From Clostridiales bacterium (lineage in GTDB: Bacteria > Bacillota > Clostridia > TANB77 > CAG-508): DNA of 61,764 nucleotides. How positions within the stretch are numbered: position 1 is the first letter of the stretch; each line of letters begins with the position of its first letter. Shown piece after piece: positions 17,466 to 61,764 of the stretch. The stretch covers positions 1 to 61,764 of the forward strand of contig SFKP01000006.1 of assembly GCA_004553715.1 (NCBI GenBank). The letters are read 5' to 3'. The position numbers were made by a program, and so were the translations under genes. Below the pieces are notes generated by a model that was not told the DNA's origin, did no database searches, and saw only the letters and a program-made list of their open reading frames with translations.

Positions 17466-17682
17466 AATAAAAGAGGCATATGAATTTATGTCTCTTTCTT
17501 GGCAATTTAAGGAAAATCATGGATTCTTTTCTTAAACTACCAAGAAAAAGCAAAACAATTCACAGAAATTTTCTACGAAATTTTCGTGGGCGAACAAAAA
17601 CGGGAATATCAGTTTTTATAAAAATTATAATATTTTAATTATATCAATTTTGTTCTAGGATAATTAATTATAGGAGGAAGTT

Positions 17683-18171: not shown

Positions 18172-18197
18172 AAGTTAAGAAAGACAAAGGAGGAAAA

Positions 18198-26890: not shown

Positions 26891-27186
26891 AAATGCGTGT
26901 AGAGATTATGAAATTCTAAAAAACGACATTTTTATACAAAAAATTCAAATAATCTCTAAAGCATACGGAAATAAAGAAAAACAATATGTTATTTGAGAAA
27001 ACAGCTAAAATGTTATGCAAATGTCATATTTAAATATACAAATGAATATTTTTTTTGATAGCGTATTTCCTTAAGTAATTTTTTACTTATATAAATATAA
27101 TATGTGCGAGAAACCAATTTATGCTATTGAAAAATATAAAAAAATCAATATAATTAATATAATATATATATAAGGAAGGTATGTGT

Positions 27187-35541: not shown

Positions 35542-36437
35542 TTTATTTGAACCAGTTGCACGGCAAAGATATTTTAAATATAGAAAAATCAATACCAATA
35601 CCTATTGAGAAATTATTTCCTTTTCCAAATCACCCATTTCAAGTAAATAATGATGAAAAAATGGAAGAAATGGCAAAAACTATAAAGGAAAGTGGAGTTT
35701 CTACACCTTTAATAGTAAGACCAAGACCAGATGGAAATTATGAAATAATATCAGGACATAGAAGAAAATTTGCAAGTGAACTTGCAGAATTAAAAGAAGT
35801 ACCATGTATTATAAGAAACCTTACAGAAGATGAGGCAGTAATAGAAATGGTAAATAGTAATATGCAAAGAGAAAAAATACTACCAAGCGAGAAAGCATTT
35901 GCATATAAAATGAAATTAGAAGCACAGAAACATCAAGGAAAAAGGACTGATACAACTTTGTCGCAAGTTGCGACGAAGTCAGAAAAAAGTACAGCTGAAA
36001 AAATAGGAAATGAGTTTGGAGAAAGTAAAGATACAGTATATAGATATATACGATTAACTGAACTTATACCAGAATTATTAAAGTTAGTTGATGAAGATAG
36101 AATAGCATTTACACCAGCAGTTGATATTTCATATCTTACTGAAGATGAACAATATGTATTGCTTAATATTTATGACTATGATGAGAAAACTCCAACTGTA
36201 CCACAAACTAGACATTTAAAAATGTTAAGTCAAGAGGGAAAACTTACAGCAGACAAAATTGAAGAAATAATGCAGGAGAAAAAAACTAATCAAGTTGAAA
36301 AAATGAAATTAGATAAGGAAAGAATAAGAAAGCTACTCCCAAAACATATAATAACAGACAAACAAGCAGAAGATTTTATTGCAAAATGTATTGAAGAACA
36401 CAATGAAAGAGAGAGGAGAAAGGCATTAGTGAGATAA
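35498..36437 (+). CDS. parB: ParB-family protein of the plasmid/ICE type, apparent 5-prime frameshift
   Basis: NHPFQV...ISGHRRKFAS...NSNMQREKILPSEKAFAYKMKLEAQKHQGKRTD. A strong RBS (AAGGAGG) and ATG at 35498 open a frame (MKNKELKMNLISADDLFEPV...) that stops at ~35603. The ParB body is in the +1 frame, open from 35532. Confidence 0.8.
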
Positions 36438-47705: not shown

Positions 47706-48290
47706 ATGAAAAAACAATATATAGAAAAAAAGACAAATAGAGATAAAAAGCATACACAACTTATAAGAGGAATTATATATGCAATTATAATAATTATTAT
47801 CTATAATATGCTCATAATTAGTATTTCTGCCATTTTAAACAAAACAGGAAAGTCTATATTTGGGTACAATATGTATATAATCACAACAGACAGTATGAAA
47901 CCAAATATAAATTCTGGAGACATAATTATAATAAACAAAGCAGATAAAGAAAACTTAAAAGTAGGAGATGTAATTACATTTTCACAGCCAGAAGGACTAA
48001 TAACACATAGAATTGTAAAAATAGAAGAAGATGAATATATAACAAAAGGGGATAACAACAATATTGAAGATGAAAAAAAAGTAAAATATGAGCAAATAAA
48101 AGGAAGAAAGGTTATGAAAATACCTTTTTTGGGGAAAGTAGTAATTTTATTACAAGATGAAGTATATATCATAGTCATTATAATTATAGTGCTGTTAATT
48201 TATCTTAATGTGCAAACAAGGGAAGAAAAAGATAGAATAAGGAGAGAGAAGAAGGAAAGAGCAGATGACAAATTCCAAAAGAATAATTAG
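47706..48290 (+). CDS. sipW: SipW/Sec11-type (archaeal-type) signal peptidase I, catalytic residues intact
   Basis: TM, then TTDSMKP (Ser), ITHRIV (His), KGDNN (Asp), and a C-terminal TM. Confidence 0.85.
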   Translation: MKKQYIEKKTNRDKKHTQLIRGIIYAIIIIIIYNMLIISISAILNKTGKSIFGYNMYIITTDSMKPNINSGDIIIINKADKENLKVGDVITFSQPEGLITHRIVKIEEDEYITKGDNNNIEDEKKVKYEQIKGRKVMKIPFLGKVVILLQDEVYIIVIIIIVLLIYLNVQTREEKDRIRREKKERADDKFQKNN

Positions 48291-48813
48291 AAGAATATTA
48301 AAAAATATTTTAAAAGCAATCATATTATTACTTGTAATATATAATATAGTATATGTTATAGGAAAAGAGTATAATGAAGAATTTAATATTAAACTATTTG
48401 GTATACAAAGTGTAATAATAACAGAAAGAGCTATGGAGCCTGAACTGAAGAAAAATGATATTGCAATTATAAAGAATAGTAAAGAGATAAAAGAGGGAGA
48501 TATAGTTGCATTTTATAAAGATAATACTTTAAAGATAAGGCGAATATATAGAGTTAATAACATAGATTATATTACAAAAGGAGACAATTATTTATATGTT
48601 GATGCAGATGAAATCAGTAAAGAACAGATAGAAGGGAAAGTAATAAACAAAATACGATATATGAGAATATTCTTAAAAATACTGCAATCAAAAGGCTTGA
48701 TGATATTTAACACAATTATATTAGTTATTATTTTCCTATTAAATAGAAGAGTGAATATAAAGCGAAGCAAAAGAAAAAATAAAAAAGTAAATTATCAAAA
48801 TAATTTAAAATAA
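48265..48813 (+). CDS. SipW-like paralogue lacking the catalytic Ser and His (predicted pseudo-peptidase)
   Basis: Same architecture, but TERAMEP in place of SGSMEP and KIRRIY in place of THRI. KGDN retained. Overlaps the upstream sipW by 26 nt. Confidence 0.75.
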   Translation: MTNSKRIIRRILKNILKAIILLLVIYNIVYVIGKEYNEEFNIKLFGIQSVIITERAMEPELKKNDIAIIKNSKEIKEGDIVAFYKDNTLKIRRIYRVNNIDYITKGDNYLYVDADEISKEQIEGKVINKIRYMRIFLKILQSKGLMIFNTIILVIIFLLNRRVNIKRSKRKNKKVNYQNNLK

Positions 48814-48844
48814 GGAACTGATATAAGTATCAGTTCCTTATTTT
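48812..48844. terminator. bidirectional terminator between convergent genes
   Basis: AAGGAACTGATA (48812-48823) pairs with TATCAGTTCCTT (48828-48839), followed by a T-run. Confidence 0.8.
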
Positions 48845-48860
48845 AAATATAAGATATATA

Positions 48861-49724
48861 TCAGATTAAATTTTTAGTAGTATTATGTGAAACAATAGGT
48901 TTCATTTTAAATATTGTTTTAAAAAAATGAAAATCATCTAATTCATTATATTCTAAGCAGGCCAAATATATATCTAATTCGTTTAAATTCTTACAAGCCG
49001 TAATAACTGCTGGATGCAGGCTATAATTAGAAAATAGTTCTAAACCTAAATCTAAAGCTTTTATAAAAGAGCCATGTTCGCGTTTTCGAACCAAATTAAA
49101 AGCTTCTTTAAAACGCATTATAGAGCTGTAACGGTAATAACCAATAGGTTTTGTATAAACATTGTCAATTACATCTTTAATAGTTTTATATTTATTGGGA
49201 TCATCTATTAACATTTTATTTACATTTTCCATAGTATATGGAAGTACTACTTTTTGTTCTGCCTCAGAAATAAGTAATATGTTTTCTCCATTTGTGTTTT
49301 CACTTTGTTGTTCATTAGAAGATTCATCTAGATAATCATTAAAATTAGACAAGAAACGCTCTAACTTAATGGTGTTTTTAACAATTTTATCTAAGTGGTT
49401 TGAATATAAAAAATTAAAAGTTTTAATCTTTTTTTCATAATCAGGTGCATCTACAATAATAGAATTTATTTTTTTAATTAATTCCTGTATTAAATCAATA
49501 TTAAGATTAGATTTTTTTAGTAAACTTAAGATGCCTGACAAATTCTTAGAAAAATTTTTAGCATTTTCTACACTACTAATGGTTTCGTCTGCAACAACTT
49601 TTTTTAAGACTTTCTGTATATTGCAATTAATAATTTCTTGAGATTTTAAATAATCTGTTAAAAATTTTTCCTCTTTATGTATTTCTAAACCAATATGTTT
49701 TTTGTCTTCTGCTAAATATATCAT
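48861..49724 (-). CDS. hypothetical protein (287 aa), opposite strand
   Basis: GAGGAGG RBS 7 nt before ATG 49724 (MIYLAEDKK...). The ORF-track start at 49796 is upstream of the RBS. Confidence 0.6.
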   Translation of the reverse strand: MIYLAEDKKHIGLEIHKEEKFLTDYLKSQEIINCNIQKVLKKVVADETISSVENAKNFSKNLSGILSLLKKSNLNIDLIQELIKKINSIIVDAPDYEKKIKTFNFLYSNHLDKIVKNTIKLERFLSNFNDYLDESSNEQQSENTNGENILLISEAEQKVVLPYTMENVNKMLIDDPNKYKTIKDVIDNVYTKPIGYYRYSSIMRFKEAFNLVRKREHGSFIKALDLGLELFSNYSLHPAVITACKNLNELDIYLACLEYNELDDFHFFKTIFKMKPIVSHNTTKNLI

Positions 49725-49876
49725 CGATATCCTCCTCATATTAAATATTATAACATTAAACAACAAAAAAACAATAGAAAAGAAAAAAATACTCAAAAAA
49801 AAAGGTTAGGGAAAAAGTTGTAAAAATTTGTAAAATAATGTATAATTATATATGTGGAGTTTTATAGGAGGGATAT

Positions 49877-50481
49877 ATGAATATTGAAAATGAGTTAAAA
49901 TTGATTTCAGCAAATGGAACTATTTCACAAAAAGATAAAGAGAGAATAATAGTTGCATTACACGAGACTGGAATAAAGATTGGAGAATCAACAACTGTTC
50001 AGCAAGAGGATACTTATTTTGATACTAGGAATAACATGCTTGAGAAAAAAGGTAGATCTTTATAAAAAGAACAATTGAAAGAAACACTTCAGAAAGGACA
50101 ACCCAAAAATATGAAATAGAATGTCCAATAGGAGCAAATATTCAAAATATTATTCAAAAAGTAAAAGAAGAACTTTCCTTAGACATTGAATTAACAAGTG
50201 AAACGATATCTAGAACTATTGAAATAATAAGGCTTGAATACGAGATGTTTTTTGATGACACTCCAGTTGTATTCAATCATGATAGATATACAGATAAAGG
50301 AACAGGAGAAAAAGGAGCAGAAATTGAAATAAAATGTCCAGAGAACCCACGACTAGTATCAGGAAAGATAAAAAAGCAATTAAAAGACAAAGGTTTTCAA
50401 TTTATCACTACAGCAAAAAAAGATTTACTGAAAACGGACAAAGGATTGGACGAAAATCCTGGTATATCACCAGAACAATAA
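49877..50481 (+). pseudogene. CYTH-domain (triphosphate tunnel metalloenzyme-like) gene with a frameshift near 50065
   Basis: N-terminal ENELKL (ExExK) and QEDTYFDT...KKGRSL* stop where LRIR is expected. The +2 frame continues KRTIERNTSERTTQKYEIECPI... into the 50245-50481 ORF. Confidence 0.55.
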
Positions 50482-50671
50482 AACTTGTATGAAAATTATG
50501 GTAAAAGAATTAAAAAAAACCAGAAAAGAATAGTAAAGAATACCTTTTGTATATTTTGGTTGAAATGAAATCAAAATACAGGAGGTATTTTAATATTTAA
50601 ATTTTTTAACTAAGAAATATTTTTTAAAATTAACTGTATCTACAAAAAACAACAAAAAAAGATATAATATA

Positions 50672-50700
50672 TTGATAAAAATACATATATATGATATAGT
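50672..50700 (+). promoter_or_regulatory. sigma-A promoter for the 50750-58873 operon
   Basis: TTGATA (50672-50677), 17 nt, TATAGT (50695-50700). Confidence 0.55.
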
Positions 50701-50749
50701 GTAATCATGAATTTGGACTAATATTTTTATAAGGAAGGATGATTATAAA

Positions 50750-51283
50750 ATGAAAAAAGTAATCTGGAATATATTTATAGTACTATACGCAATAATTGCA
50801 ATATTTGTGACAATATGTCTATTATCTTACAATGAATATAGAATTTCAGAATTTGGAGATTACTCATTAGTAATAATAGATAGCAGAGAATTAGAGCCAG
50901 AATTTGCAAAAGGAGACCTGGTAATCACTGATAGAAGCTATAAAGTAGAAGAAGGACAACAAGTGTTTTTTTATAAAACAAATTTTGGAGAAGTTAGTAT
51001 AAGTGTTGCTGAAATAGCGGAAAGACAAGAATATACAAATGGTGAAGTAACATACGTACTAGAAGGTGACAATATAATTAAAGAAAAAAATATTTTAGGA
51101 GCCGTAGATAAAGTAAAGACAATAAAAAATGCTGGTACAATACTTGGAGTGTTAGAGTCAAAATGGGGCTTTTTAGTATTAATAGTATTGCCTTCTTTAA
51201 TAGCATTTTTATATGAAATAGCTGAATTAATTTCTGATTTAAGAAGTGGTTCAAATAAAAAGGAAAAAAATGAAAAACACTAA
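50750..51283 (+). CDS. SipW-like paralogue lacking the catalytic Ser and His (predicted pseudo-peptidase)
   Basis: TM, then IDSRELEP in place of SGSMEP, VAEIAE in place of THRI, and EGDN retained. C-terminal TM. Confidence 0.7.
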   Translation: MKKVIWNIFIVLYAIIAIFVTICLLSYNEYRISEFGDYSLVIIDSRELEPEFAKGDLVITDRSYKVEEGQQVFFYKTNFGEVSISVAEIAERQEYTNGEVTYVLEGDNIIKEKNILGAVDKVKTIKNAGTILGVLESKWGFLVLIVLPSLIAFLYEIAELISDLRSGSNKKEKNEKH

Positions 51284-51893
51284 AAAAGTATTTATAATAT
51301 TAACTTTATTAATGACAGTATTTACAATATATCAAATAGTAAATACTTATGCACTTTTTGAAAGTAGACTTTCAGGAACTTCTCAAATTCCTGTTGGCAG
51401 GTGGAATATTGATTTAAATGGGAGTGATATTACATCAGGAGTGACGCAAAATTTTTTGATAGATTCATTTAACATTGAACAAAATGAATATATATTGGAA
51501 AATAAAATTGCACCTGGGTTATCGGGATACTTTGAAATTCAAATTCATCCTAAAGATACTCAAGTATCTATAAGGTATGATATAACAATTGATAATTCAA
51601 ATGTAGCTGAACAAAGGATAAAATTAGTATCTGTTACAGAAACAAACAATACTAATAAGATTATAAGAACAGGGCCAAATACATATACAGCAATTATTCC
51701 ATTAGAAAATATAAACACAACATATTTTGATATTGTGAAAACAGCATTTGTTTGGGAAAATAACGAAGAATATAATGAGCAAGATACAGCAATAGGAACT
51801 AAAGATAATCCAAGTATAGCTATACCAATAGCTTTTACAGCTACACAATATACAGGGGAAGAAATAATTGAATATGTAGAGGGAGAAGCATGA
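51270..51893 (+). CDS. TasA/camelysin-like secreted subunit with SipW-cognate-type signal (subfamily 1)
   Basis: MKNTKKVFIILTLLMTVFTIYQIVNTYALFESRLSG...GRWNIDLNG. C-terminal strand IAFTATQ. Overlaps the upstream gene by 14 nt. Confidence 0.65.
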   Translation: MKNTKKVFIILTLLMTVFTIYQIVNTYALFESRLSGTSQIPVGRWNIDLNGSDITSGVTQNFLIDSFNIEQNEYILENKIAPGLSGYFEIQIHPKDTQVSIRYDITIDNSNVAEQRIKLVSVTETNNTNKIIRTGPNTYTAIIPLENINTTYFDIVKTAFVWENNEEYNEQDTAIGTKDNPSIAIPIAFTATQYTGEEIIEYVEGEA

Positions 51894-52429
51894 GCAAAAC
51901 TTTAGAAAAAATATTTTCAAAAATATTAAATGTATTACTTACAATAATACTGTTAGCACTAGCAATTCTCATATATAACTATGTACAGATAACTGTTTTA
52001 AAAAAAGATTATACAAATATATTTGGTTATACTGCTTTTCAAGTTGTAAGTGGAAGTATGGAAGAAACTATAAAAGTAGGAGATATTATAATAGCAAAAT
52101 TAAAATATAATCAACCACTAAAACATGGAGATATTATAGTATTTAAACAAGATGAAAACATTATTACACATCGAATTATAGAAATGGGCGATGGTAAAAT
52201 AATTACAAAAGGAGATGCAAACAATACTACAGATAATCCAATTACTAGAAGTGAAGTAATTGGCAAGGTAATAAAAATTATTCCAAATATTGCAATCTGG
52301 AAAAAGGTTTTTACTTCTCCAAAAGTTATTATATCTGTTATAACAACCATTATTTTCTTTGGGATTGCTTTTTCATTTAAAGAAAAAAACCAATGTAAAG
52401 AAAAAGAGGAAGATAAAGATAATGTTTGA
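51890..52429 (+). CDS. sipW: SipW/Sec11-type signal peptidase I, catalytic residues intact
   Basis: VVSGSMEE, ITHRII, KGDANN. ATGA overlap with the upstream gene. Confidence 0.85.
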   Translation: MSKTLEKIFSKILNVLLTIILLALAILIYNYVQITVLKKDYTNIFGYTAFQVVSGSMEETIKVGDIIIAKLKYNQPLKHGDIIVFKQDENIITHRIIEMGDGKIITKGDANNTTDNPITRSEVIGKVIKIIPNIAIWKKVFTSPKVIISVITTIIFFGIAFSFKEKNQCKEKEEDKDNV

Positions 52430-52994
52430 TAGAAAAAGAATTATTATAATTGTTAAATTCCTAATTACATTACTAACACTAATATTAATATTAATGTTAA
52501 TATGTAGAACTTTGGCAAAATATGAAACAACAGCGACAACAGATGCAAATATACAGGCGGCATTTTATTTGTTAAAAGATGACTATCAAACTATGACTGT
52601 AAATTTGGCAGAAATGCAACCTAGGGATGAAGCATATTCTTATACATTTTCTGTAGCAAATAATGATGGTACCAAAAGGACAGAAACATCTTTAGAGTAT
52701 GATTTACAAATGAGGGCAACAACAAATTTACCATTAAGATATAAACTATATTTAAATGGGATAGAAATTAATATAATTACAAACTCGGAAACCATAATAG
52801 ATGAATATGGAACATATTTTCGAGTTTTTAGTACAGATACGAAGATGTTTGGGCACACAGAGAATGAAACAAATATATATAATTTGGTCATCGAATTCCC
52901 TTTAGAATATAAACAAACAATAGAGTATCAGGATGTTATAGAAGGAATAGAAATAACAGTTAATTCAAGACAAATGATTAATGAAGGGGCATAA
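52422..52994 (+). CDS. secreted subunit with SipW-cognate-type signal (subfamily 2)
   Basis: MFDRKRIIIIVKFLITLLTLILILMLICRTLAKYETTATT. GAGGAAG RBS. 8-nt overlap with sipW. Ends IEITVNSRQ. Confidence 0.6.
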   Translation: MFDRKRIIIIVKFLITLLTLILILMLICRTLAKYETTATTDANIQAAFYLLKDDYQTMTVNLAEMQPRDEAYSYTFSVANNDGTKRTETSLEYDLQMRATTNLPLRYKLYLNGIEINIITNSETIIDEYGTYFRVFSTDTKMFGHTENETNIYNLVIEFPLEYKQTIEYQDVIEGIEITVNSRQMINEGA

Positions 52995-52996
52995 GA

Positions 52997-53932
52997 ATGA
53001 AAGAGGCAAAAAAAAAGAAATTTAGCAAATTTTATACAAAGCAAATATTAATAATAAGCTGTATTTTTATTAATATAATATTTCTTGCTTCCGTTTTTGG
53101 TAGATATGTATCAAATAATGTTAGAGGCTTTTTTGGTAGAACAAAGGAATTCTATTTTTATAGTGATAAATTAGATACAAACAATCCAAATTATCAAATT
53201 GAAAGCTGGTCAGGGGTTGATGATTATACAATTACTATAAATATGCATAGCTATGAAAACAATCTATTAGAAACAGAGTATGATATAGAATATGATATTT
53301 CTTATACAGCATCAGATAACATTATTTGCCAACTAAGTAAAACCCAAGGAATGATAAGTGCTGACACAAATACAGATTATTTTAATCTTACAATTACACC
53401 AAATGCTATTTTAGAAACAGGTGATAAGGTTTTCGTAGAGATAACAGCACATGCAAGTTCTCCTTATGAAAAAACAATAAAAGGAAAATTTACATTAGTA
53501 GTGGGGCAAGAAAAACTAAGTTATGAAATAATTGATTCTGTAAATAGCCCATATTGTGAATTAAATATTACAAATACACTTTCTTATTACATAGTAAGCC
53601 AAGCTTTTGATACATATTTAAGTGGTGATAAAATAACAAGAGATACATATTTAAATTTAACAGATACCAATAAGGCAAAATGCTATTCAAGCATAGTGAC
53701 ACTAACATTTAATCCAAATGATGTTTTAATAGATAATACCAATAATGCTTATGTTAATGCAATATCAACTACACAAACTCAAAAAAATAATTATACATAT
53801 ATAAACGGAATGACTTTTAAAGTAGATGCACTTTCAAGTCAGAGAATAAGATTTTATAAGACAGATGTATCGAAGGACTACACATATCCAAAAAATAACA
53901 ATACACCAATAATAACATTAACAAACATATAA
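52997..53932 (+). CDS. secreted subunit with SipW-cognate-type signal (subfamily 2, larger, 311 aa)
   Basis: KQILIISCIFINIIFLASVFGRYVSNN. Shares an (E)YD(I/L) block with the preceding gene product. Confidence 0.55.
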   Translation: MKEAKKKKFSKFYTKQILIISCIFINIIFLASVFGRYVSNNVRGFFGRTKEFYFYSDKLDTNNPNYQIESWSGVDDYTITINMHSYENNLLETEYDIEYDISYTASDNIICQLSKTQGMISADTNTDYFNLTITPNAILETGDKVFVEITAHASSPYEKTIKGKFTLVVGQEKLSYEIIDSVNSPYCELNITNTLSYYIVSQAFDTYLSGDKITRDTYLNLTDTNKAKCYSSIVTLTFNPNDVLIDNTNNAYVNAISTTQTQKNNYTYINGMTFKVDALSSQRIRFYKTDVSKDYTYPKNNNTPIITLTNI

Positions 53933-53954
53933 CACTATAAAAGGAGAAATATAT

Positions 53955-54938
53955 ATGAACATAATGAATGAATATCTTAAGATAACTGAAAAATATATAA
54001 CAAAATACTTTAAAGTAATATTAGAAAATAGATTTAATAAAAAGATATCTGATGAATTTATAAAAACATATATAGAAGCAAGATATTATGATATGGAAGA
54101 GTCACAAAGCAGAAATGAGCTAAAGAGTAATATACTAAAAAAAATATATAAAAAGGCGGAACTATTGTTAAATGAATTTCCCAAGCAGGAAGTAATTATT
54201 GAGCAAATTAAAAATTTTTACAAGTATATTCTATATTTTGATAATGTAATACATAAAAAAGATACAGAAAAATTAATTAATGATATATATGAAAAGAAAA
54301 AACAAATTACAAATAAAGTAAACGAAGATTTTGAGCAAACTTTAAGAAATATAGTATCAGAATACAAAGCTTCTATACAAGATTTGCTAACAAAACTTGA
54401 AAGTGGTGAATTCAGCCTAGAAATTAAAAAAATTTCAGACGAAAATCGTCTAGAAGAAATAGTACTAAACCATGATATTAAATTCCCAATGATATATAGT
54501 AATGAAGCTATACAGAAAGCTTTTGAAACAGACATTATTAAGGAGGATATGCAAGCTGTAGAATATTATTTAGTAATATATAAAATACTTAAAAATATTA
54601 TAAATGGAGATATGAAAAAGCAATACATCGTAAGTTTTCAAGCAACCATATTTGATAAAAAACAAAAATTAAAAAGAATAATAGAAATAATAAACAATCA
54701 ATTCATACAAGAAAAAATAACAATTAAAGTCAAGTATATGGATTTTATAAAATATAAGAAAGAGTATAGCAACTTAATTCGAAATGGCTTTAAAATAGCT
54801 GTTTTGATAGATGAAGGTTTTGACATATCAAAACTAAAAGAACTTGAAATTTCAAAATATGTATTAATAAATAAAGATTTAAAAATTTATCCAGAAATAA
54901 TAAAAAGTAAACATTCTTTAAATATAATAGGAATGTAA
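53955..54938 (+). CDS. hypothetical cytoplasmic protein; C-terminal half has a degenerate EAL-domain-like pattern
   Basis: QYIVSFQATIFD ... EKITIKVKYMDF ... LIRNGFKIAVLIDEGFDISKLKELEISKYVLINKDL resembles the EAL pattern (vsvNlS / lEiTE / G..ialDDFGtG...L..l..d.lKiD), but the catalytic residues are not conserved. AAGGAGA RBS. Confidence 0.4.
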   Translation: MNIMNEYLKITEKYITKYFKVILENRFNKKISDEFIKTYIEARYYDMEESQSRNELKSNILKKIYKKAELLLNEFPKQEVIIEQIKNFYKYILYFDNVIHKKDTEKLINDIYEKKKQITNKVNEDFEQTLRNIVSEYKASIQDLLTKLESGEFSLEIKKISDENRLEEIVLNHDIKFPMIYSNEAIQKAFETDIIKEDMQAVEYYLVIYKILKNIINGDMKKQYIVSFQATIFDKKQKLKRIIEIINNQFIQEKITIKVKYMDFIKYKKEYSNLIRNGFKIAVLIDEGFDISKLKELEISKYVLINKDLKIYPEIIKSKHSLNIIGM

Positions 54939-54975
54939 AATAAAAATAAGCTTAAGGAACGAGGAGGAAAACTAG

Positions 54976-56502
54976 ATGGAAACATTCACAAGATTTTTAT
55001 ATGAATTCTTGTCACAATTTTTTTCAGGACTAATAACAATCGCAACAGGTTTTGGAAAAGGCATAATGCAATTGTTTAATATAAAGGCATATTCAGAAGT
55101 AATAAGTAAATATAAGGGAGATTTTACCATGCCAGAATGGCTTATGGTAGCAATAGCAATACTTGTTATGATACTTGTATATGGAGCAATAATCTTATTA
55201 ATATACTTTCTTATAAGAAAGTATATTAGGTTTAGAAGAAAGATAGTAGAGCAAGAAACTATGTTAGATGAAATTGCCACACTTAACCATAAAGTAGGAG
55301 AACTAATGATTGAAAAAGATAAAATACTAGCAATGAAGGTGTCACAATTAGGCTTAAAACCAGACGAAAGCGCAGAAGAAGAAAAAGAAATGACAAATAC
55401 AAAAGAAGAAGACAAAAATACAGGAATAAGATTCTCAAAATTGAATGATATCGACGAAGAATATAAAAACTATAAAATTAAGAATTATGGAAATAATTTT
55501 ACTTTACCAGAATTATGTGAAAATTTTAGAAACTTTGCAGCATCAAGATTAAAACTATATTATACAACAAACATGATGCAATTATTTATATCCTCTTTGG
55601 CATCAACAAAACTAGTAATTTTACAAGGTATTTCAGGAACAGGTAAAACATCACTTGCCTATGCATGGGGGAAATTTCTAAAACATGACTCATGTGTTGC
55701 TTCTGTTCAGCCATCTTGGAGAGATAGAACAGAATTATTTGGATATTTCAACGAGTTTACTAAAAAATTCAATGAAACTGAAGTTTTAAAGGAAATGTAT
55801 ATAGCGGGATATACAGATGATATATATACCATTATACTAGACGAGATGAACATCTCACGTGTTGAGTATTATTTTGCAGAAATGCTTTCTATACTGGAGA
55901 TGCCTAATAAAGACGAATGGATTGTAGAGCTTGTACCAAATGTTTGGAAAAATGACCCTAAGAAATTAATGGGTGGTAAGTTAAAAATACCATCTAATAT
56001 GTGGTACATAGGAACAATTAATAACGATGACTCTACATTTATGGTTACAGATAAAGTTTACGATAGAGCAATGCCAATAGATATAAATGATAAAGGACAA
56101 GTATTTGAACCGGTTGATACAGACCCAATGGATATAAACTACACATATTTAGATAAGCTTTTCAAACAAGCGATGGAAGAAAATGCAGTTTCACAAGATA
56201 CTTTAGATAAAATAGAAATAATGGATAATTATGTAATACAGCATTTTAGAATTGCATTTGGTAATCGTATAGTTGCACACATGAAAAAATTCGTACCAGT
56301 ATTTGTTGGCTGTGGTGGAGATGAAATTACAGGTGTAGACTATTTTTTAGCAAGAAAAGTTTTAAGAAAATTTGAGCAATTAAATATATCCTATATAAGA
56401 GATGAGATAGAACCATATATAGAATTTTTAAATAAGACTTTTGGAAAAGATAAAATGAAAGAGTGTATAGAATACTTGCAGAGATTGAAGAAGTTAACTT
56501 AG
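54976..56502 (+). CDS. membrane-anchored McrB-family (AAA_5) AAA+ NTPase
   Basis: TM helix MVAIAILVMILVYGAIILLIYFLI, coiled-coil linker, Walker A LQGISGTGKTS, Walker B region TIILDEMNISRVEYYFAEMLSILE, and IGTINNDDSTFMVTDKVYDRAMPIDI, which parallels McrB iiGTmNtaDrS...D.AlrRRF. Confidence 0.75.
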   Translation: METFTRFLYEFLSQFFSGLITIATGFGKGIMQLFNIKAYSEVISKYKGDFTMPEWLMVAIAILVMILVYGAIILLIYFLIRKYIRFRRKIVEQETMLDEIATLNHKVGELMIEKDKILAMKVSQLGLKPDESAEEEKEMTNTKEEDKNTGIRFSKLNDIDEEYKNYKIKNYGNNFTLPELCENFRNFAASRLKLYYTTNMMQLFISSLASTKLVILQGISGTGKTSLAYAWGKFLKHDSCVASVQPSWRDRTELFGYFNEFTKKFNETEVLKEMYIAGYTDDIYTIILDEMNISRVEYYFAEMLSILEMPNKDEWIVELVPNVWKNDPKKLMGGKLKIPSNMWYIGTINNDDSTFMVTDKVYDRAMPIDINDKGQVFEPVDTDPMDINYTYLDKLFKQAMEENAVSQDTLDKIEIMDNYVIQHFRIAFGNRIVAHMKKFVPVFVGCGGDEITGVDYFLARKVLRKFEQLNISYIRDEIEPYIEFLNKTFGKDKMKECIEYLQRLKKLT

Positions 56503-56556
56503 ATGATAGGTGTTAAAAAAAGCTTTTGTCGTGGTTGGAAGGAAGAATAAAAAGCT

Positions 56557-57651
56557 ATGAAAAGATTAAAAGTAATAAGATTATATCAAAGTGAAGAAAG
56601 TAATCAGAATGAATTTATGAAGAGCATTAATTCAAGTTTAAATGTTAAAACAAATTATCAAAAAGTGACAGAAGATTTGGAATGGATCGATCTTATGGAA
56701 TTAACTATTCCATATATAGGGAATATTTTAAAAAATCCAAACAGATTTATAATTAATGAAGAAGAAATTGTAAAAATAGAGTTAGCAAGAAGAATAACAG
56801 TAGATAGTATAAAACATTTATCTAAAAATACAAATTTTATACAAGATTTTGATCAAAAAACGGGAGATGTAAAACCATCTAAAATACTTAATATAAATAA
56901 AGAAGAAAGTTATGATACGTACGAAAACCGTTTCATATATACTTTAATACAAAACATGAAGTTTTTCATAAGTAAGCGAAAAAAAATACTAGAAGGAAGA
57001 AAAGCAATAAAAGAAAGAAGTAACAAACAGATAGACTATACAGGAATATCAAAAATAGCAAATGAAAACATAAGTATTAAAATAGAATTAACTACTAATA
57101 AGGAAGAAAAATGCACTATATCTGATACAATCGCGAGAATAGAAAGACTAGAGCAACAAATACAAGATTTAACATCTTCGGAAACGTATAAAATAATAGA
57201 TAAAAAGCATATTGCCCTAGTTGTTTCACCGATAAAGAGGACAAATGTCATCCTAAAAAACGTCAATTTTCAATATGCAGTAAAACTTTGGAATTATATG
57301 CAACAGAATATAGATGATAAAACAAAAGAAGTAAAAAGCAGAAGAAATTTTTCTGATGATAAAGAAATGAAAGAATTAGTTGACGAAACATTTTTGCTAG
57401 ATTATTTAATAGTAAATTCATTAGACAAGGGACAAGCTGATACTCTTGAAAAGAAACAGGCAAAACAGCAAATTACTAACAAAGTCTTAGAAAAAATATT
57501 ATATTCAAACGATAATCTTACAGAAGAACAGTTAAAAGATATAATATCAAAAACATATAAAACAATGAAACATAAAAACATGGCAACAATTGCAGAAGTG
57601 CAGAGAGTGTTTAAGGAACACATTGATTATTATTTAAAACAAATAAAATAA
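56557..57651 (+). CDS. McrC N-terminal/DUF2357-like partner protein with no recognisable nuclease domain
   Basis: SYDTYENRFIYTLIQNM block and the later PIKRTNVILKNVNFQYAVKLWNYM block fit my recollection of DUF2357/McrC-like proteins. The C-terminus is a K/E-rich helical tail, and I can see no PD-(D/E)xK motif. Confidence 0.5.
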   Translation: MKRLKVIRLYQSEESNQNEFMKSINSSLNVKTNYQKVTEDLEWIDLMELTIPYIGNILKNPNRFIINEEEIVKIELARRITVDSIKHLSKNTNFIQDFDQKTGDVKPSKILNINKEESYDTYENRFIYTLIQNMKFFISKRKKILEGRKAIKERSNKQIDYTGISKIANENISIKIELTTNKEEKCTISDTIARIERLEQQIQDLTSSETYKIIDKKHIALVVSPIKRTNVILKNVNFQYAVKLWNYMQQNIDDKTKEVKSRRNFSDDKEMKELVDETFLLDYLIVNSLDKGQADTLEKKQAKQQITNKVLEKILYSNDNLTEEQLKDIISKTYKTMKHKNMATIAEVQRVFKEHIDYYLKQIK

Positions 57652-57663
57652 GTTTGACCCAAA

Positions 57664-58263
57664 ATGGAGGAAAATAAAATGTTAGAAAAATTAAAAGAAA
57701 ATAAAGCACTAAAACTAATATATAATATTTTATATACATTACTTGTAGTTTTAGTAGTATTAATATTGATAACAGTTGTTTTACAAAGAGTATCTAACAA
57801 CACTTTAAGTTTAGGTGGTTTTAGAGTATTTAATATAGTCAGTGGAAGTATGCTTCCAAAATATGAAGTAGGGGATGTACTAATATCCAAAACACTAGAA
57901 CCATCAGAGATAAAGCAGGGGGATGATGTGGTATATCAAGGGGCAGAAGGTGATTTTTCTGGAAAAATTGTCACACATCAGGTTATAGAAATAGAAGAAG
58001 AAAATGGGAATTACAAATTTCATACAAAAGGACTTGCAAACACTGGAGAAGATCCTATAGTCAAACAAGAACAAGTAATAGGAAAAGTAATATATAAAAT
58101 GCAAACTTTAAGCTATATTTCAAGACTAGTAAATAACTTGTATTCATTCTACTTTATAATATTTATTCCATTAGTATTACTAATATTTTTAGAGATAAGA
58201 AAAGCAGTTATAGATATAAGAGAAAATAAAGAAGATAAGGAAGATGAAGAAAAAAAGGAATAA
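57664..58263 (+). CDS. SipW/Sec11-type signal peptidase I (Ser and His present, canonical Asp position substituted)
   Basis: IVSGSMLP, VTHQVI, but TKGLANTGED where paralogues have KGDNN. ATG 57679, after GGAGGA, is the likely start. Confidence 0.8.
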   Translation: MEENKMLEKLKENKALKLIYNILYTLLVVLVVLILITVVLQRVSNNTLSLGGFRVFNIVSGSMLPKYEVGDVLISKTLEPSEIKQGDDVVYQGAEGDFSGKIVTHQVIEIEEENGNYKFHTKGLANTGEDPIVKQEQVIGKVIYKMQTLSYISRLVNNLYSFYFIIFIPLVLLIFLEIRKAVIDIRENKEDKEDEEKKE

Positions 58264-58873
58264 GATGAATAAGCAAAGAGATGATATTTTTATAATTAAA
58301 TTATTTAAAAGAATCAAACTAAGAAATCTAATTTTATTAATATTATTGCTTAGTTTTAATTCATATGCCTGGTTTATATATGCAACAAAAGTGTCTACTG
58401 GAATGAGTGCACATATATCTTCTTGGAATGTACATTTTCAGGCAGGGGAAGAAGAAATTAAAACAGAAATAATGCTAGATTTTGATATAATTTATCCGGG
58501 AATGGAAATACAGTCAAAAACCGTAACAGCATATAATACTGGAGAAACTTTGGCAAATTTATCGTATGAAATAAAAACCATAAGAATATTAGACACAACA
58601 TATACAACAAGTGAAACATTGACACAAGAAGAAATACTAAATATAATTGATACCACATGCCCGTTTAACATTGCTTTTGAAATAGATAATTCAAATTTAA
58701 ATTCGACAAATGGAAGTGCAAATTTTACTGCAATAATATCATGGCCAATGGAAGGTAATGATGTATTAGACACAGAGTGGGGGGAATTAGCATACGAATA
58801 TAATAAAAACAATCCAACCAGTCCTAGCATACATATAGAATTAGTAATAAAGGCTATTCAAGCCACACAATAG
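58244..58873 (+). CDS. TasA/camelysin-like secreted subunit (subfamily 1)
   Basis: LILLILLLSFNSYAWFIYATKVSTG...SSWNVHFQAG. Ends IELVIKAIQATQ. Alternative start at ATG 58265. Confidence 0.6.
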   Translation: MKKKRNKMNKQRDDIFIIKLFKRIKLRNLILLILLLSFNSYAWFIYATKVSTGMSAHISSWNVHFQAGEEEIKTEIMLDFDIIYPGMEIQSKTVTAYNTGETLANLSYEIKTIRILDTTYTTSETLTQEEILNIIDTTCPFNIAFEIDNSNLNSTNGSANFTAIISWPMEGNDVLDTEWGELAYEYNKNNPTSPSIHIELVIKAIQATQ

Positions 58874-58882
58874 AAATTATAT

Positions 58883-59485
58883 TTATATTGTAGTACTAGT
58901 AGTTTGAGTAAATGATATTGATACATCCAAAAGGGCTTCGTTCGAGCTTTCAAAAGTAGCAGCAGCATCTGCAATATTATTCATACTAGCATTACTAGAA
59001 TCATCCCATAAAATGTACACACGTATTGTTCTAGAGTCAATGCCACTATTATAATATATTGTATCACTTATACCAGTATTACCGTCAAAATCAAGGCGCT
59101 CTTCATTATCAATAGAATAGCCAGAAACTACTAAGTCTGTGACACTACTATCTTCATTTGGTTTAATATTTATATCATAAATAAAAGAAACGTCAGTGTC
59201 TGAAAAATCAAATACAAGATCAAAATAACCTTCTGCTGTAGGAGCAATAACTCCACTAGCAATATGGGAATTACCCGGAAAAACAGGTGAAATAACAGAA
59301 GAAAGTGCAGAATTATTTTTTATTGAAACATCATTAACTTTAATATTCCATCTGGCGATTGGAATACTTGCAATTTGGTTAGCAGAAGTAATATATTTTG
59401 CAAATGTATATACCATAATGCAAAAACATATACAGGCAGAAACGACAGATAAGAATAATAATAACTTTTTAAATAATTTAGACAT
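58883..59485 (-). CDS. TasA/camelysin-like secreted subunit (subfamily 1), encoded on the opposite strand
   Basis: MSKLFKKLLLFLSVVSACICFCIMVYTFAKYITSANQIASIPIARWNIKVND. Ends LLDVSISFTQTTSTTI. Confidence 0.65.
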   Translation of the reverse strand: MSKLFKKLLLFLSVVSACICFCIMVYTFAKYITSANQIASIPIARWNIKVNDVSIKNNSALSSVISPVFPGNSHIASGVIAPTAEGYFDLVFDFSDTDVSFIYDINIKPNEDSSVTDLVVSGYSIDNEERLDFDGNTGISDTIYYNSGIDSRTIRVYILWDDSSNASMNNIADAAATFESSNEALLDVSISFTQTTSTTI

Positions 59486-59568
59486 AGAATCAACCCTTTC
59501 AAAATATGATTAGATTTTATCATACTAAATTATTTAGAGCAATAAAAATAAAGGAAAAAGAAGAAAAA

Positions 59569-60267
59569 ATGTTAAAGGAAAAAGTAAAATTAAATTCAGA
59601 AAAAATTAATATAAGAGAAAGAAGAATAAAAGCACTAAAACTAGGTTTATTAATTAGTTTGCTATTTTTAATAATAATTTATGTAATTTTACGAATTGTA
59701 TATACTCAAGGCGCTTTTACTATTGCTTTAAATCAAAACTTTGCGAAGAAAAGTGGACTAATAATGTATGAAAATGGAGAGATAAAAGAAGGTAGAAGAG
59801 TGCTAGAAGCTGACAAAAAGGAGTTTATGGACAATATATCTATTAATTGGCTACCTAAAGACTTAAACGAACATCCAGGGGGAGCACACAATGGAGATAA
59901 TTACATAGCATATACATTTTTTGTAGAAAATCAAGGTAGCCAAACTACGAACTATTGGTATACAATAATTATAGATGATATAATAAGAGATGTAGATGAA
60001 GCAGTAAGAGTAATGATATATCATAATGGGGCAGAAGAAGTATATGCAAAAATTGGGAAAAATGGGAAAGCAGAAGCAAATACTACACCTTTTTATTCAG
60101 ATAAATATGTATTGATGAGAGTAAGAGAAGATTTTAATGAGGGAGATAGAGATAAGTTTACGATTGTAATATGGATTGAAGGAGATGACCCAGATTGCAT
60201 AGATTATTTGATAGGAGGTCAAATGAAAATGCATATGGAAATAACTGAGGAACATATCGAACAGTAA
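59569..60267 (+). CDS. TasA-like secreted or membrane-anchored subunit (subfamily 3)
   Basis: Basic N-terminus, TM LGLLISLLFLIIIYVILRIVYTQGAFTIAL. C-terminal IVIWIEGDDPDC motif shared with the next gene. Confidence 0.55.
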   Translation: MLKEKVKLNSEKINIRERRIKALKLGLLISLLFLIIIYVILRIVYTQGAFTIALNQNFAKKSGLIMYENGEIKEGRRVLEADKKEFMDNISINWLPKDLNEHPGGAHNGDNYIAYTFFVENQGSQTTNYWYTIIIDDIIRDVDEAVRVMIYHNGAEEVYAKIGKNGKAEANTTPFYSDKYVLMRVREDFNEGDRDKFTIVIWIEGDDPDCIDYLIGGQMKMHMEITEEHIEQ

Positions 60268-60327
60268 AAAAGAAAATATGACAAACATATTACAAATATT
60301 ACAAATAAATTACATTTTTAAAATGTA

Positions 60328-60356
60328 TTGACATTATTTTTCCAAAGATGTAATAT
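60328..60356 (+). promoter_or_regulatory. strong sigma-A promoter (consensus -35, extended -10) with upstream palindrome
   Basis: TTGACA (60328-60333), 17 nt ending in TG, TAATAT (60351-60356). Perfect palindrome TACATTTTTAAAATGTA (60311-60327) abuts the -35. ATTACAAAT direct repeats lie upstream. Confidence 0.65.
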
Positions 60357-60393
60357 TGAGTTATCCAAAAAAATAAAAGAAAGGAAGAATAAT

Positions 60394-61410
60394 ATGAAAA
60401 CAAGAAAAACAAAAAGACATAGCGCGAGAGCAACTTTATTATTGTTATTACTTTTTTCAGTAATATTACTATCATCATCTTATGCATGGTTTACAGCAAA
60501 CCAAACAGTTACAATTAGCCAACTAGAAGTTAATGTAGCAGCACAAGGAGGTTTACAAATTTCAGCAGATGGAAGTAAATGGTCTGCTTTAGTAAACAAA
60601 TCAGACTTAGTGACAGCAGCTAGTACATATAGTGATTTAATAAATCAATTCCCATCAGCTTTTGAAGCTGTATCAACAGCTGGAAATGTAACAGATGGTA
60701 AAATGGATATGTTCGCAGGAACTGTTTTAGCAGATGAAAATACAGGTATTTATGAATTAACAGCCGAAAAACAAACAGAGGTAACAGGCACAACTGGTAA
60801 ATTTATAGCTTTTGACATTTTCTTTAAAGTTGAGAAAGCAACAAATATAGAATTAACATCTAAGTCAGGGGTTAAATTAAAATCAGGTTCAACAAGCCAA
60901 GGAATTCAAAATGCAGCAAGAGTAGCTTTTTTAGTTCAAGGAACCAAGCCAGATGGAACAGCTTTGTCAACTATACAAAAACAAAATGGAGCAACAACAG
61001 AAAGTGGGAGATATATTTGGGAGCCAAATTATGATGTTCATACAGCAGCTGCAACACAAGCGGCTTTAGGAACTTATGGTTTAACAATTAGTGAAACTGG
61101 CGAAGAGAGAATATCTTATGATGGTGTTAAAGCAACAATTACAGATGGTATTGCTTTAGCAGATGCTAAAGCAACTGGAGCTAACACAGCATATTTTGCA
61201 ACAACTCCAATCGCATATTCAACAACTGCAGCATTTGGAACAAATGTTACAGACGCACAAGCTATATTCCAATTACCAGCAGGAATAACAAAAGTGAGAG
61301 TATATATGTGGATAGAAGGGCAAGATGTAGATTGTGAAAACAATGCCTCAGGTGCAGATATTACATTTGATATGCAAATAAAAAGATCAGCAACACAACC
61401 AAGTGCTTAA
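60394..61410 (+). CDS. TasA-like secreted subunit (subfamily 3), candidate major subunit
   Basis: [50 protein letters not shown]. Ala/Gly/Thr-rich composition unlike its neighbours. VYMWIEGQDVDC motif. Own promoter and terminator. Confidence 0.7.
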   Translation: MKTRKTKRHSARATLLLLLLFSVILLSSSYAWFTANQTVTISQLEVNVAAQGGLQISADGSKWSALVNKSDLVTAASTYSDLINQFPSAFEAVSTAGNVTDGKMDMFAGTVLADENTGIYELTAEKQTEVTGTTGKFIAFDIFFKVEKATNIELTSKSGVKLKSGSTSQGIQNAARVAFLVQGTKPDGTALSTIQKQNGATTESGRYIWEPNYDVHTAAATQAALGTYGLTISETGEERISYDGVKATITDGIALADAKATGANTAYFATTPIAYSTTAAFGTNVTDAQAIFQLPAGITKVRVYMWIEGQDVDCENNASGADITFDMQIKRSATQPSA

Positions 61411-61430
61411 ACTAAACCTTTAGAATATAA

Positions 61431-61462
61431 ACCTCTTCAAATATAATTTGAGGGGGTTTTTC
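61431..61462 (+). terminator. rho-independent terminator
   Basis: Imperfect CCTCTTCAAAT / ATTTGAGGGGG hairpin followed by TTTTT. Confidence 0.6.
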
Positions 61463-61649
61463 AATATGATAATAATTCTTTAAGATAAAAATAAATAATG
61501 AATATTTGTACTCGCTTTGTACATAATTATTTAGGATTTCATTTATACCCTTTATGCAAAAAAATATGACCACTTATCTCAAATTACAACGTTAGTATAA
61601 ACTTTTAGTAGGGAAATCTTAGAAAAAAATGTTAAAGCAATAGAAAAAA

Positions 61650-61764
61650 CTATTGCTTTTTTATTTTTGGTTTTGAAATTAAAGATGCTATATATCCAAA
61701 GAATACAGCTGCAGCGATACCTCTTGCAGCAGCTGCAGTTCCTCCTGTAAAGGCACCAATAAAA
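61650..61764 (-). CDS. 3-prime end of a small hydrophobic protein gene running off the window (partial)
   Basis: The reverse strand reads ...FIGAFTGGTAAAARGIAAAVFFGYIASLISKPKIKKQ*. It is only 37 codons, so support is weak. Confidence 0.3.
   Translation of the reverse strand, partial: FIGAFTGGTAAAARGIAAAVFFGYIASLISKPKIKKQ

Follow-up and report, generated by a model that had tools for sequence, protein, structure and literature searches.

Gene content of the locus

The DNA considered here is contig SFKP01000006.1 of a Clostridiales bacterium (assembly GCA_004553715.1), which is 61,764 nucleotides (nt) long and is called the window throughout, and the system in question occupies its positions 47706-61410. 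It brings together five signal peptidase homologs, seven proteins with N-terminal export signals and a membrane-anchored GTPase related to the McrBC restriction systems, and by its sequence it is a member of CoCoPALM, a class that owes its name to a publication of 2024 (Bell et al., eLife; PMC11090510). The window itself is chromosomal DNA of a low-GC Firmicute (guanine-cytosine (GC) content about 22-35%) with rpoB and rpoC at 2.7-10.1 kb; among species-representative genomes the closest RpoB sequences are only 77-78% identical and come from metagenome-assembled genomes (MAGs) of uncultured Clostridia.

What is encoded at the locus? An earlier note, made from the sequence of the window and its translated open reading frames (ORFs), had described 15 of 17 genes as co-directional and frequently overlapping, and had recognized among them the five peptidase homologs and seven signal-bearing proteins. 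This observation is confirmed overall, as are the overlaps, which measure 4-26 nt, whereas the counts have to be corrected to 14 plus-strand genes among 16 ORFs, with C and N on the minus strand (Table 1). We refer to the peptidase homologs as Sip1 to Sip5 and to the remaining proteins by letter. Overlaps are found at Sip1/Sip2 (26 nt), Sip3/E (14 nt), E/Sip4 (4 nt), Sip4/G (8 nt) and Sip5/M (20 nt), and G is separated from H by 2 nt.

Two hairpins, at 48803-48848 and 61634-61659, suggest two transcription units, an accessory one with the gene of a giant surface protein, Sip1 and Sip2, and a core operon running from Sip3 to P. The first hairpin, located between the convergent Sip2 and C genes, is called as a terminator on the minus strand only, i.e. 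downstream of C; being a near-perfect palindrome, its stem may end the Sip1-Sip2 transcript as well. The promoter-like site at 50672-50700 is a consensus match only, and sites of this kind are no more common in the region than in shuffled sequence. An Rfam scan of the window returned two tRNAs only, and no riboswitch or other RNA control element.

Table 1. Features of the locus and its immediate surroundings, in window coordinates (aa, amino acids)
Feature	Position	Strand	Description
Giant repeat-rich surface protein	39727-47650	+	Frames 39727-41553 and 41447-47650
Sip1	47706-48290	+	Signal peptidase I homolog, accessory module
Sip2	48265-48813	+	Signal-peptidase-fold pseudo-enzyme, accessory module
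Hairpin Sip2/C	48803-48848	.	Stem of 20 pairs, then T-run
C	48861-49796	-	Function not assigned, probably cytoplasmic
Degraded ORF	about 49878-50480		Fragments broken by stops, between C and Sip3
Promoter-like site of core operon	50672-50700	+	TTGATA-17-TATAGT, upstream TG
Sip3	50750-51283	+	Conserved pseudo-peptidase, opens core operon
E	51270-51893	+	Secreted beta-sandwich subunit, E/N family
Sip4	51890-52429	+	Predicted active signal peptidase I
G	52422-52994	+	Secreted subunit, distant relative of E and N
H	52997-53932	+	311 aa, signal-anchored or secreted
I	53955-54938	+	Cytoplasmic protein without recognized family
J	54976-56502	+	Membrane-anchored coiled-coil McrB-like GTPase
K	56557-57651	+	McrC N-terminal domain (DUF2357) protein
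Sip5	57664-58263	+	Signal peptidase I, probably active
M	58244-58873	+	Secreted subunit, distant relative of E and N
N	58883-59485	-	E paralog
O	59569-60267	+	Signal-anchored; alternative start at 59506
P	60394-61410	+	Candidate major structural subunit
Terminator-like hairpin after P	61634-61659	+	10-bp stem, then T-run; core operon end

Conservation and modular architecture

Relatives of P occur at 264 places in species-representative genomes; we fetched 79 of these loci and mapped all proteins of the window onto them. Dozens of species carry the block in the same order, so that the condition under which the earlier note would have been refuted, a lack of co-conservation in other genomes, clearly does not hold. 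The core order and the strand of each gene, Sip3-E-Sip4-G-H-I-J-K-Sip5-M-N(-)-O-P, are kept across these species, and the ordered G/P-H-I-J-K-Sip5 core is found in 41 of the 79 species loci, where it takes the fused, the tandem or the module-B form. The fused order of the window is found in 20 species. In 14 others the locus consists of two tandem modules, module A with Sip3-E-Sip4-G-P, followed by module B with [Sip3]-H-I-J-K-Sip5-M-N(-)-O-P; at least seven species have module B alone, and in one MAG the two modules lie on different contigs (L047 and L060). In the related loci, each module begins with Sip3. The loci measure about 11-22 kb, and their carriers are uncultured low-GC gut Firmicute species, one of them represented by a complete chromosome of 1.26 Mb (OZ006994.1).

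Signal peptidase homologs predicted to be active or inactive

All five Sip proteins have one N-terminal and one C-terminal transmembrane segment, and their initial description as SipW/Sec11-type peptidase homologs holds: they are mutual paralogs in BLAST, Sip3 being recognized as a paralog of Sip1 and Sip2, and four of the five exceed the curated cutoff (51.85 bits) of TIGR02228, the NCBIfam model of archaeal-type signal peptidase I. The scores are 103.3 bits for Sip1, 56.0 for Sip2, 90.3 for Sip4 and 95.4 for Sip5, with Sip3 below the cutoff at 30.0 bits. None of them reaches the 190-bit cutoff of NF046067, the equivalog model of Bacillus SipW; thus, they are not orthologs of SipW.

In SipW the catalytic residues are reportedly Ser47 and His87. 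We scored the catalytic positions in alignments of the ortholog sets from the 79 related loci. They are invariant in Sip4 (S56, H94 and D109, in 42 of 42 sequences) and in Sip5 (S62, H105 and D130, in 41 of 41), the Asp of the 'GD' motif of Sip5 being replaced by Ile or Leu in 38 of its 41 orthologs. Sip1, too, has all three residues, with the Ser in TDSMKP, the His in THR and the Asp in GDNNN. Sip2 has Ala (TERAMEP) in place of the Ser and Arg (KIRR) in place of the His, and of the 64 Sip3 orthologs none has either the Ser or the His. Judged by these residues, Sip1, Sip4 and Sip5 are plausibly catalytically competent, and Sip2 and Sip3 are conserved pseudo-enzymes. With only three of the five homologs able to be catalytic, the idea of dedicated processing for each subunit class is not supported.

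The secreted proteins

E, G, H, M, N, O and P each have exactly one hydrophobic segment, which is N-terminal. The earlier note had described these seven N-termini as a basic stretch, a transmembrane helix and an aromatic/Ala-type junction, and the motifs it quoted are present and conserved in orthologs. The junction consensus is TYaLFES in E, TYAKYiTSA in N, NSFAWFIYATKVS in M, T.SKYES in G (TLAKYETT in the window) and TSTYAWFTAN in P; H (tfGRYvYN) and O (YeGG.FTItLD) fit the pattern less well. We searched the N-terminal 80 residues of all window ORFs with 100 aa or more for the junction by means of a regular expression, which matched five ORFs, all of them within the locus. The C-terminal beta-strand closing on Gln, which the earlier note had described for most subunits, is found in E, N, M, G and P, whose orthologs keep the Gln with few or no exceptions, and is absent from H and O.

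How are these proteins related to each other? Profile-profile comparison with hhalign connects E to N with a probability of 99.9%, E to both M and G with 93%, M to N with 80% and G to H with 77%; G and N are connected with 95.6% over the N-terminal 42 columns only, and O and P with 84% over 36 columns, which comprise only their C-terminal motif WIEG(Q/D)DxDC. This roughly matches the three subfamilies proposed at the outset (E/M/N, G/H and O/P), except that G also groups with E, N and M. N detects E in BLAST at 1.1e-8, and the family of the two proteins is large, with 2988 clusters at 50% identity (E<=1e-3). Conserved features of E are W45 and N50 (AKWxIxVN) and a C-terminal IPxxVxxxQY, and those of N are IARWxIxVNN and a C-terminal FTQ. 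M orthologs share the NSYAWFIYATKVS junction and a C-terminal A.Q, G orthologs a C-terminal IEItIDSKQ and H orthologs FYFxSDKL. In O, the transmembrane segment (26-44) follows a charged N-terminal segment, and FTIVIWIEGDDPDC..LIGGEMKMHMDITEEHI is conserved at the C-terminus. H, which is without a family match in Pfam and NCBIfam, is the first subunit of module B in the related loci, its gene coming directly after the (pseudo-)peptidase gene with which that module opens.

The N gene lies on the opposite strand in every related locus. We considered N as an invertible element and rejected this possibility, as convincing flanking inverted repeats are missing and the orientation is fixed across species.

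Against Pfam and NCBIfam, the seven subunits gave a single sub-threshold match, namely that of the N-terminus of G to the TapA model TIGR04087 (E 5e-4), which at 19.7 bits versus a cutoff of 80 does not constitute membership. A sequence search of solved structures with a concatenate of the seven subunits and with E- and P-family profiles returned nothing.

P stands out by its large family, its distinct composition and a promoter-like site of its own, and is therefore likely to be the major structural subunit. It has 2466 homologs at E<=1e-3, none of which carries a Pfam domain and one of which is named SipW-dependent-type by JGI. Its GC content of 35% and its content of A+G+T+S+V (48%) are both unlike those of the 14 other genes compared, and the promoter-like site is found upstream of it at 60328-60356. 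At its SSYAWFTAN junction, Y30, A31, W32, F33, T34 and N36 are invariant, and VRVYMWIEGQDVDCENNASG is conserved in orthologs. The AlphaFold2 (AF2) model of P has a mean predicted local distance difference test score (pLDDT) of 89.4 and a predicted template modeling (TM) score of 0.85; the subunit of the Sulfolobus thread (7pnb) ranks second in its Foldseek list, with a weak E of 0.06.

Many Asn, Glu, Lys and Gln residues of P are invariant, and O and P each have a single invariant Cys within the acidic motif WIEG(Q/D)D(V/P)DC. By analogy with the isopeptide of BsaA, this motif could provide a metal site or an intermolecular cross-link.

Relationship to TasA

Are the subunits TasA-like, as the earlier note proposed? 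The defining Pfam family of TasA and camelysin, Peptidase_M73 (PF12389), is matched at E<=1 neither by the seven subunits nor by 129 diverse representatives of the E/N family, whereas it is present throughout a control set of 120 TasA relatives. In hhalign comparisons with an alignment of 75 TasA family sequences, the E/N family reaches a probability of 3.3% (E 0.013, over 62 C-terminal columns) and the P family one of 0.6%. The best-scoring segment pairs IPIAFTATQY with LQFSFEATQW, a likeness of motifs without statistical support, and comparison of the profiles with single TasA sequences yielded no significant signal either. When the E/N profile was run against 1.84 billion representative sequences, the best 150 matches were all strong members of its own family.

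Structural models were computed from alignments of database hits. E is predicted as a beta-sandwich (pLDDT 77.5), for which Foldseek lists generic sandwiches, such as cohesin and the CLIPPER domain, ahead of the TasA fiber (8aur_A; rank 6, E 7.1e-3, probability 0.99, TM score 0.35-0.39), with cannulae and FimG further down the same weak list. With neither HMM nor profile-profile support, a generic sandwich in E and a model without significant match in P, the assignment to the TasA type is not supported, and by every sequence test employed the subunits are not members of the TasA/camelysin family.

The TasA junction (GGTWAAFND) follows a T-(Y/F/W)-A-x-F pattern, which can be recognized by eye in TYALF, SYAWF and TFAKY as well. 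TIGR04088, the model of SipW-dependent-type signal peptides, is matched by 45 of 73 P-family members (best E 7.3e-4), though not by the window copy of P. In the AF2 monomers, the residues right after the predicted cleavage site (32-39 in E, 28-36 in P) have a pLDDT below 50, and the first strand of P (39-48) falls in 10-residue blocks averaging 54 and 67; such poor order in the models would be expected of a strand that becomes ordered only in the polymer. That the subunits may work like TasA is a reasonable supposition.

The I-J-K GTPase module

In J, residues 58-76 form a strong transmembrane segment, behind which, at about 82-125, lies a stretch rich in heptads and in K and E. Over residues 193-370, a profile of 24 orthologs matches the AAA+ domain of Escherichia coli McrB (6hz4, 6ut6 and 7vsr; E 6.5e-4 to 8e-4), placing Walker A (GISGTGKT), Walker B (ILDEMN) and the sequence INNDD, the latter against NTAD of McrB; N349, N350, D351 and D352 are invariant in the 24 orthologs. 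We read this signature as NxD followed by a second Asp, an assignment made by motif and not by tree, and one for which the hidden Markov model (HMM) alignment would also allow the reading NxxD. J further matches the PADLOC candidate model PDC-M26A at 6.9e-32, over the AAA+ core only (residues 193-316), and has no match to the Pfam DivIC/FtsB family at E<=0.1.

K matches DUF2357, the N-terminal domain of McrC, at 2.4e-12. The domain is present in 24 of 24 K orthologs, a nuclease family in none of them. K has no transmembrane segment, its C-terminal half is long, helical and K/E-rich, and it retrieved nothing from the PDB. I also lacks a transmembrane segment, is without a match in Pfam, NCBIfam and the PDB, and directly precedes J in 45 related loci.

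The AAA+ genes had been regarded as a module embedded in a fiber locus. Instead, J, conserved in the manner of a core machine, is the most conserved gene of the locus, with a mean column identity of 81% and a median identity to the window copy of 73%, as compared to 30-53% for the other genes, and together with I and K it forms a fixed part of it. The constant order and position of I-J-K across the related loci argue that the three genes are integral to the system and not passengers.

Several side observations concern cyclic di-GMP. One of 26 I orthologs has a weak match to the EAL domain (E 0.023), K has a weak match to the MshE-related cyclic di-GMP-binding motif (E 0.051), and a response regulator-GGDEF protein is encoded at 33083-34021, about 14 kb upstream of the locus and 17 kb upstream of its core. 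A link of the locus to cyclic di-GMP is possible but unsupported.

Comparison with known systems

In their census of McrBC systems, Bell et al. describe a large clade of NxD-type McrB GTPases that are fused to an FtsB-like transmembrane segment and coiled coil; the NxD signature is usually followed by D or E, and the DUF2357-containing McrC partner usually also has a coiled coil (PMC11090510). CoCoPALM is named there in three sentences, as a group with signal-peptidase-family proteins in its operons, and its analysis is deferred (PMC11090510). J and K fit this description, and it is on them that we base the assignment: J is an McrB-like NxD GTPase with an N-terminal transmembrane and heptad-rich segment, K is a DUF2357 partner with a helical K/E-rich extension, and Sip3, Sip4 and Sip5 share an operon with them, both here and in 41 or more of the related loci. 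The locus is thus not the novel system that it had been taken for, as its class already had a name, albeit one that was not followed by further analysis (PMC11090510); within the literature library searched, no later paper uses the name CoCoPALM. The main text of Bell et al. and the two supplementary files searched do not describe protein I, the families of the seven subunits, the arrangement in two modules or the giant-adhesin module, nor do they distinguish active peptidases from pseudo-peptidases. The system is therefore real, widespread and functionally uncharacterized, yet already recognized by name.

Among characterized loci, tapA-sipW-tasA of Bacillus subtilis, sipW-tasA-calY of Bacillus cereus and sipW-bsaA-bsaB-bsaC of Clostridium perfringens are similar in that a peptidase of the archaeal/endoplasmic reticulum (ER) type is encoded beside secreted beta-sandwich proteins. 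Further parallels are the aromatic-Ala-aromatic signal junction, the last strand ending in Gln and the presence of several paralogous substrates per operon; operons with several TasA/BsaA paralogs are on record, and the idea of heteropolymers has already been raised for them (PMC11580942). As the earlier note had recognized, however, the locus goes beyond tapA-sipW-tasA and sipW-bsaABC, with far more parts: it has five peptidase homologs, two of them dead, and seven substrates, none of which belongs to Peptidase_M73, and its GTPase module is obligatory, in contrast to the TasA-type loci, none of which has one.

SipA belongs to the bacterial (P-type) signal peptidase lineage and works with sortase-linked LPxTG pilins. 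SipA/LepA of the FCT pilus loci of Streptococcus pyogenes, a catalytically dead signal-peptidase-I-like protein which is encoded in a pilus operon and needed for pilus polymerization, is the best precedent for Sip2 and Sip3 (PMC4049620). In contrast to SipA, the pseudo-enzymes described here are of the archaeal/ER type, and LPxTG motifs are absent from the proteins scanned, which also sets the locus apart from sortase-dependent Gram-positive pili in general.

With McrBC type IV restriction systems, the locus shares the AAA+ domain of J, which aligns with E. coli McrB, and the McrC N-terminal activator domain DUF2357 of K. However, J has a transmembrane segment and coiled coil in place of the DNA-binding N-terminal domain, K is without a detectable PD-(D/E)xK nuclease domain, and the partners are exported proteins and peptidases rather than methyltransferases or other restriction-modification genes.

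Finally, the archaeal donor-strand filaments, namely AbpA bundling pili, Sulfolobus 0406 threads and Pyrodictium cannulae, are built from beta-sandwich subunits that are exported by Sec, processed by signal peptidase I and joined by donation of an N-terminal strand (PMC9245690). Foldseek matches to the thread (7pnb) and cannulae (9h8b) structures are all weak (E 0.04-0.06). We know of no nucleoside triphosphatase (NTPase) reported for these archaeal filaments.

Accessory module and neighboring features

The giant adhesin noted upstream of the locus is present, although in the window its gene occupies two overlapping frames. The protein begins with a basic and transmembrane N-terminal signal and has no Pfam match. 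A related locus (L091) has a single intact gene of 2929 aa directly upstream of Sip1-Sip2, which aligns to window positions 41387-47647 in one frame at 49-62% identity. This points to a split of the window gene near 41.39-41.55 kb by a frameshift, reflecting a pseudogene or phase variation, or by an assembly error. The giant gene, Sip1 (51% identical), Sip2 and C precede the core in L091 exactly as in the window, and the accessory module is thus conserved in at least this lineage; most other loci lack it upstream of the core. Probably, this accessory operon, with its giant adhesin, the active Sip1, the pseudo-enzyme Sip2 and the divergent C, would supply a large adhesin together with an active/pseudo peptidase pair of its own.

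C has no family match in Pfam, NCBIfam or PADLOC, and its apparent N-terminal transmembrane segment is probably an artifact of an over-long, TTG-started ORF. A homolog is found at the same position in L091 (40-53% identity), and a C-like gene on the opposite strand also belongs to a second mini-locus, about 5 kb downstream of the core, in two loci from Clostridia MAGs (L006 and L007, about 15400-18300). This mini-locus further encodes an active Sip1-like peptidase, an E-like protein (GTYAKYTTS) and another signal-bearing protein, which suggests that C travels with SipW-type loci. A single-sequence pattern scan of the species genomes returned no relatives of C.

In L091, the Sip3 ortholog is truncated at 120 aa (9481-9843) and C is split into two ORFs (8462-9305), by decay of accessory genes or by assembly errors alike. 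The next gene after P in this locus is DnaA/IstB-like and lies on the other strand. In the 950-bp interval between C and Sip3 of the window, the degraded ORF starts with MNIENELKLISANGTISQKDKERIIVALHETGIKIGESTTVQQEDTYFDTRNNMLEKKGRSL and a stop and carries on in another frame; its QEDTYFD segment resembles, by eye, a CYTH/triphosphate-tunnel domain. Further upstream, a ParA/ParB-like pair, read from the translations by a MinD/ParA-type P-loop and ParB-type motifs, is located at 34717-36437, with the GGDEF regulator on one side and the giant adhesin on the other. Another large surface protein, of 1556 aa, is encoded at 27181-31851; it has five DUF11 repeats and an ordinary signal peptide, without a SipW-type junction.

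Discussion

What can be discerned about the role of this locus? We lean, by a modest degree, toward a CoCoPALM-type apparatus that builds a multi-subunit surface fiber, with Sec export and SipW-type processing of the subunits, and is coupled to a membrane-anchored GTPase of McrBC origin. In such an apparatus, the subunits would enter the membrane via Sec and stay tethered there by their signal anchors, until cleavage by Sip4 and Sip5 behind the (T/S)(Y/F)A motif frees a strongly conserved N-terminal strand. The subunits would then polymerize, the probable mode being strand complementation of the kind known from TasA, BsaA and the archaeal bundling pili, with P forming an abundant shaft and E, N, M, G, H and O serving as minor, tip or base subunits. 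Sip3 may bind signal peptides without cutting them and act as an assembly chaperone, following the precedent of SipA, and Sip2 might do likewise in the accessory module. A hexamer of J, activated by K, could perform GTP-driven work which, transmitted via coiled coil and transmembrane segment, would control or drive the assembly of the fiber or its passage through the wall. These steps, from fiber formation and donor-strand exchange to the roles of the individual subunits and the GTPase, are what we infer from the gene content, catalytic residues, signals, co-conservation, GTPase motifs and fold class described above.

Several points weigh against this proposal. The evidence for a filament is indirect. 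Homology to TasA or camelysin is absent at the sequence level from all subunits, and for the presumed shaft subunit P, Foldseek retrieves nothing from the PDB or BFVD at E<=1e-3. None of the seven window proteins, P included, matches the SipW-dependent-type signal model TIGR04088, and for the E/N family this model does not figure in a listing of the 25 families matched most often. An [LIV]Px[TAS]G (LPxTG-type) motif is absent from the 16 proteins of the locus and from the giant protein, so that no signal for anchoring a fiber was found. In 15 species, module A stands alone, without I-J-K within 10 kb, implying that the GTPase may not be needed for every subunit. To our knowledge, the fibers of TasA, BsaA and the archaeal donor-strand systems need no NTPase, so that the role envisaged for J and K is without precedent. 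Lastly, J and K descend from restriction systems, and the AAA+ core of J matches a candidate defense model.

This last point invites the alternative that the locus is a conflict or defense system, in which the GTPase senses invader nucleic acid or acts on it at the membrane and the secreted proteins, instead of forming a pilus, serve as effectors or else alter or shield the envelope. The McrBC ancestry of J and K would be in keeping with it, as would the prediction of defensive roles for the sister CoCoNuT systems (PMC11090510) and the strong match of J to PDC-M26A. This match, however, is limited to the AAA+ core. A nuclease domain goes undetected in all 24 K orthologs, J has its transmembrane segment and coiled coil where McrB has the DNA-binding domain, and scans with Pfam, NCBIfam and PADLOC found no toxin or nuclease domain in any core gene. 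Moreover, defense islands are typically patchy and fast-evolving, whereas the synteny of this locus is stable over dozens of species, with J under unusually strong purifying selection. We therefore regard a defense function as unlikely.

To a similar degree, we doubt that the same peptidases and GTPase build a non-filamentous surface structure, such as an S-layer-like coat, a matrix gel or a spore-associated layer. The composition and abundance of P are as expected of a major surface protein in general, and TasA was first described as a spore-coat-associated and matrix component. Sporulation genes lie beside the locus in some carriers (L007), and a coat would also accord with the missing wall-anchor motif. 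Nevertheless, the fixed series of seven distinct subunit families, among them minor subunits that are paralogs, resembles pilus operons with their shaft and minor pilins more than S-layer loci, and the conserved N-terminal strand together with the C-terminal strand-Gln motif points to strand-mediated polymerization in one dimension.

That an unrelated McrBC-like cassette was inserted by chance into an ordinary multi-paralog operon of the TasA/BsaA-like matrix type is very improbable: such cassettes are mobile and common, and J does match a defense-candidate model, but I-J-K lies between H and Sip5 in every module-B locus, in at least 41 species, J is more conserved than any flanking gene and anchored to the membrane, K is without a detectable nuclease domain, and the same association was found independently in the McrBC census (PMC11090510). 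An insertion of J-K as part of a defense island is effectively refuted by the synteny.

Taken together, the interpretation given in the earlier note is upheld in part. A dedicated, co-conserved locus is supported, whereas novelty, TasA type, per-class processing and a merely embedded AAA+ module are not supported or had to be corrected. Our analysis provides the split of the peptidase homologs into active and dead ones, the seven subunit families with their cleavage motifs, the two-module architecture and P as the likely shaft.

If the fiber apparatus proposed here is real, it would show how a large group of uncultured gut bacteria builds its main surface appendage, and it would, for the first time, place the CoCoPALM branch of McrBC, as yet unexplored, in a functional context. 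We would tentatively entertain a broader view, although we hold it somewhat doubtful, according to which CoCoPALM represents an NTPase-driven route of surface-filament biogenesis in Bacillota, with a repurposed restriction motor, made of a J-type GTPase hexamer and a nuclease-less McrC activator, that would power or gate the assembly of Sec-exported beta-sandwich subunits cut by archaeal/ER-type peptidases, with pseudo-peptidase chaperones and, in P, a fold without known relative, and as such a new kind of pilus machine unlike the chaperone-usher, type IV, sortase, curli and TasA-type systems. The fiber apparatus, if real, would be an instance of a restriction-system motor that was recruited to the biogenesis of the cell envelope.

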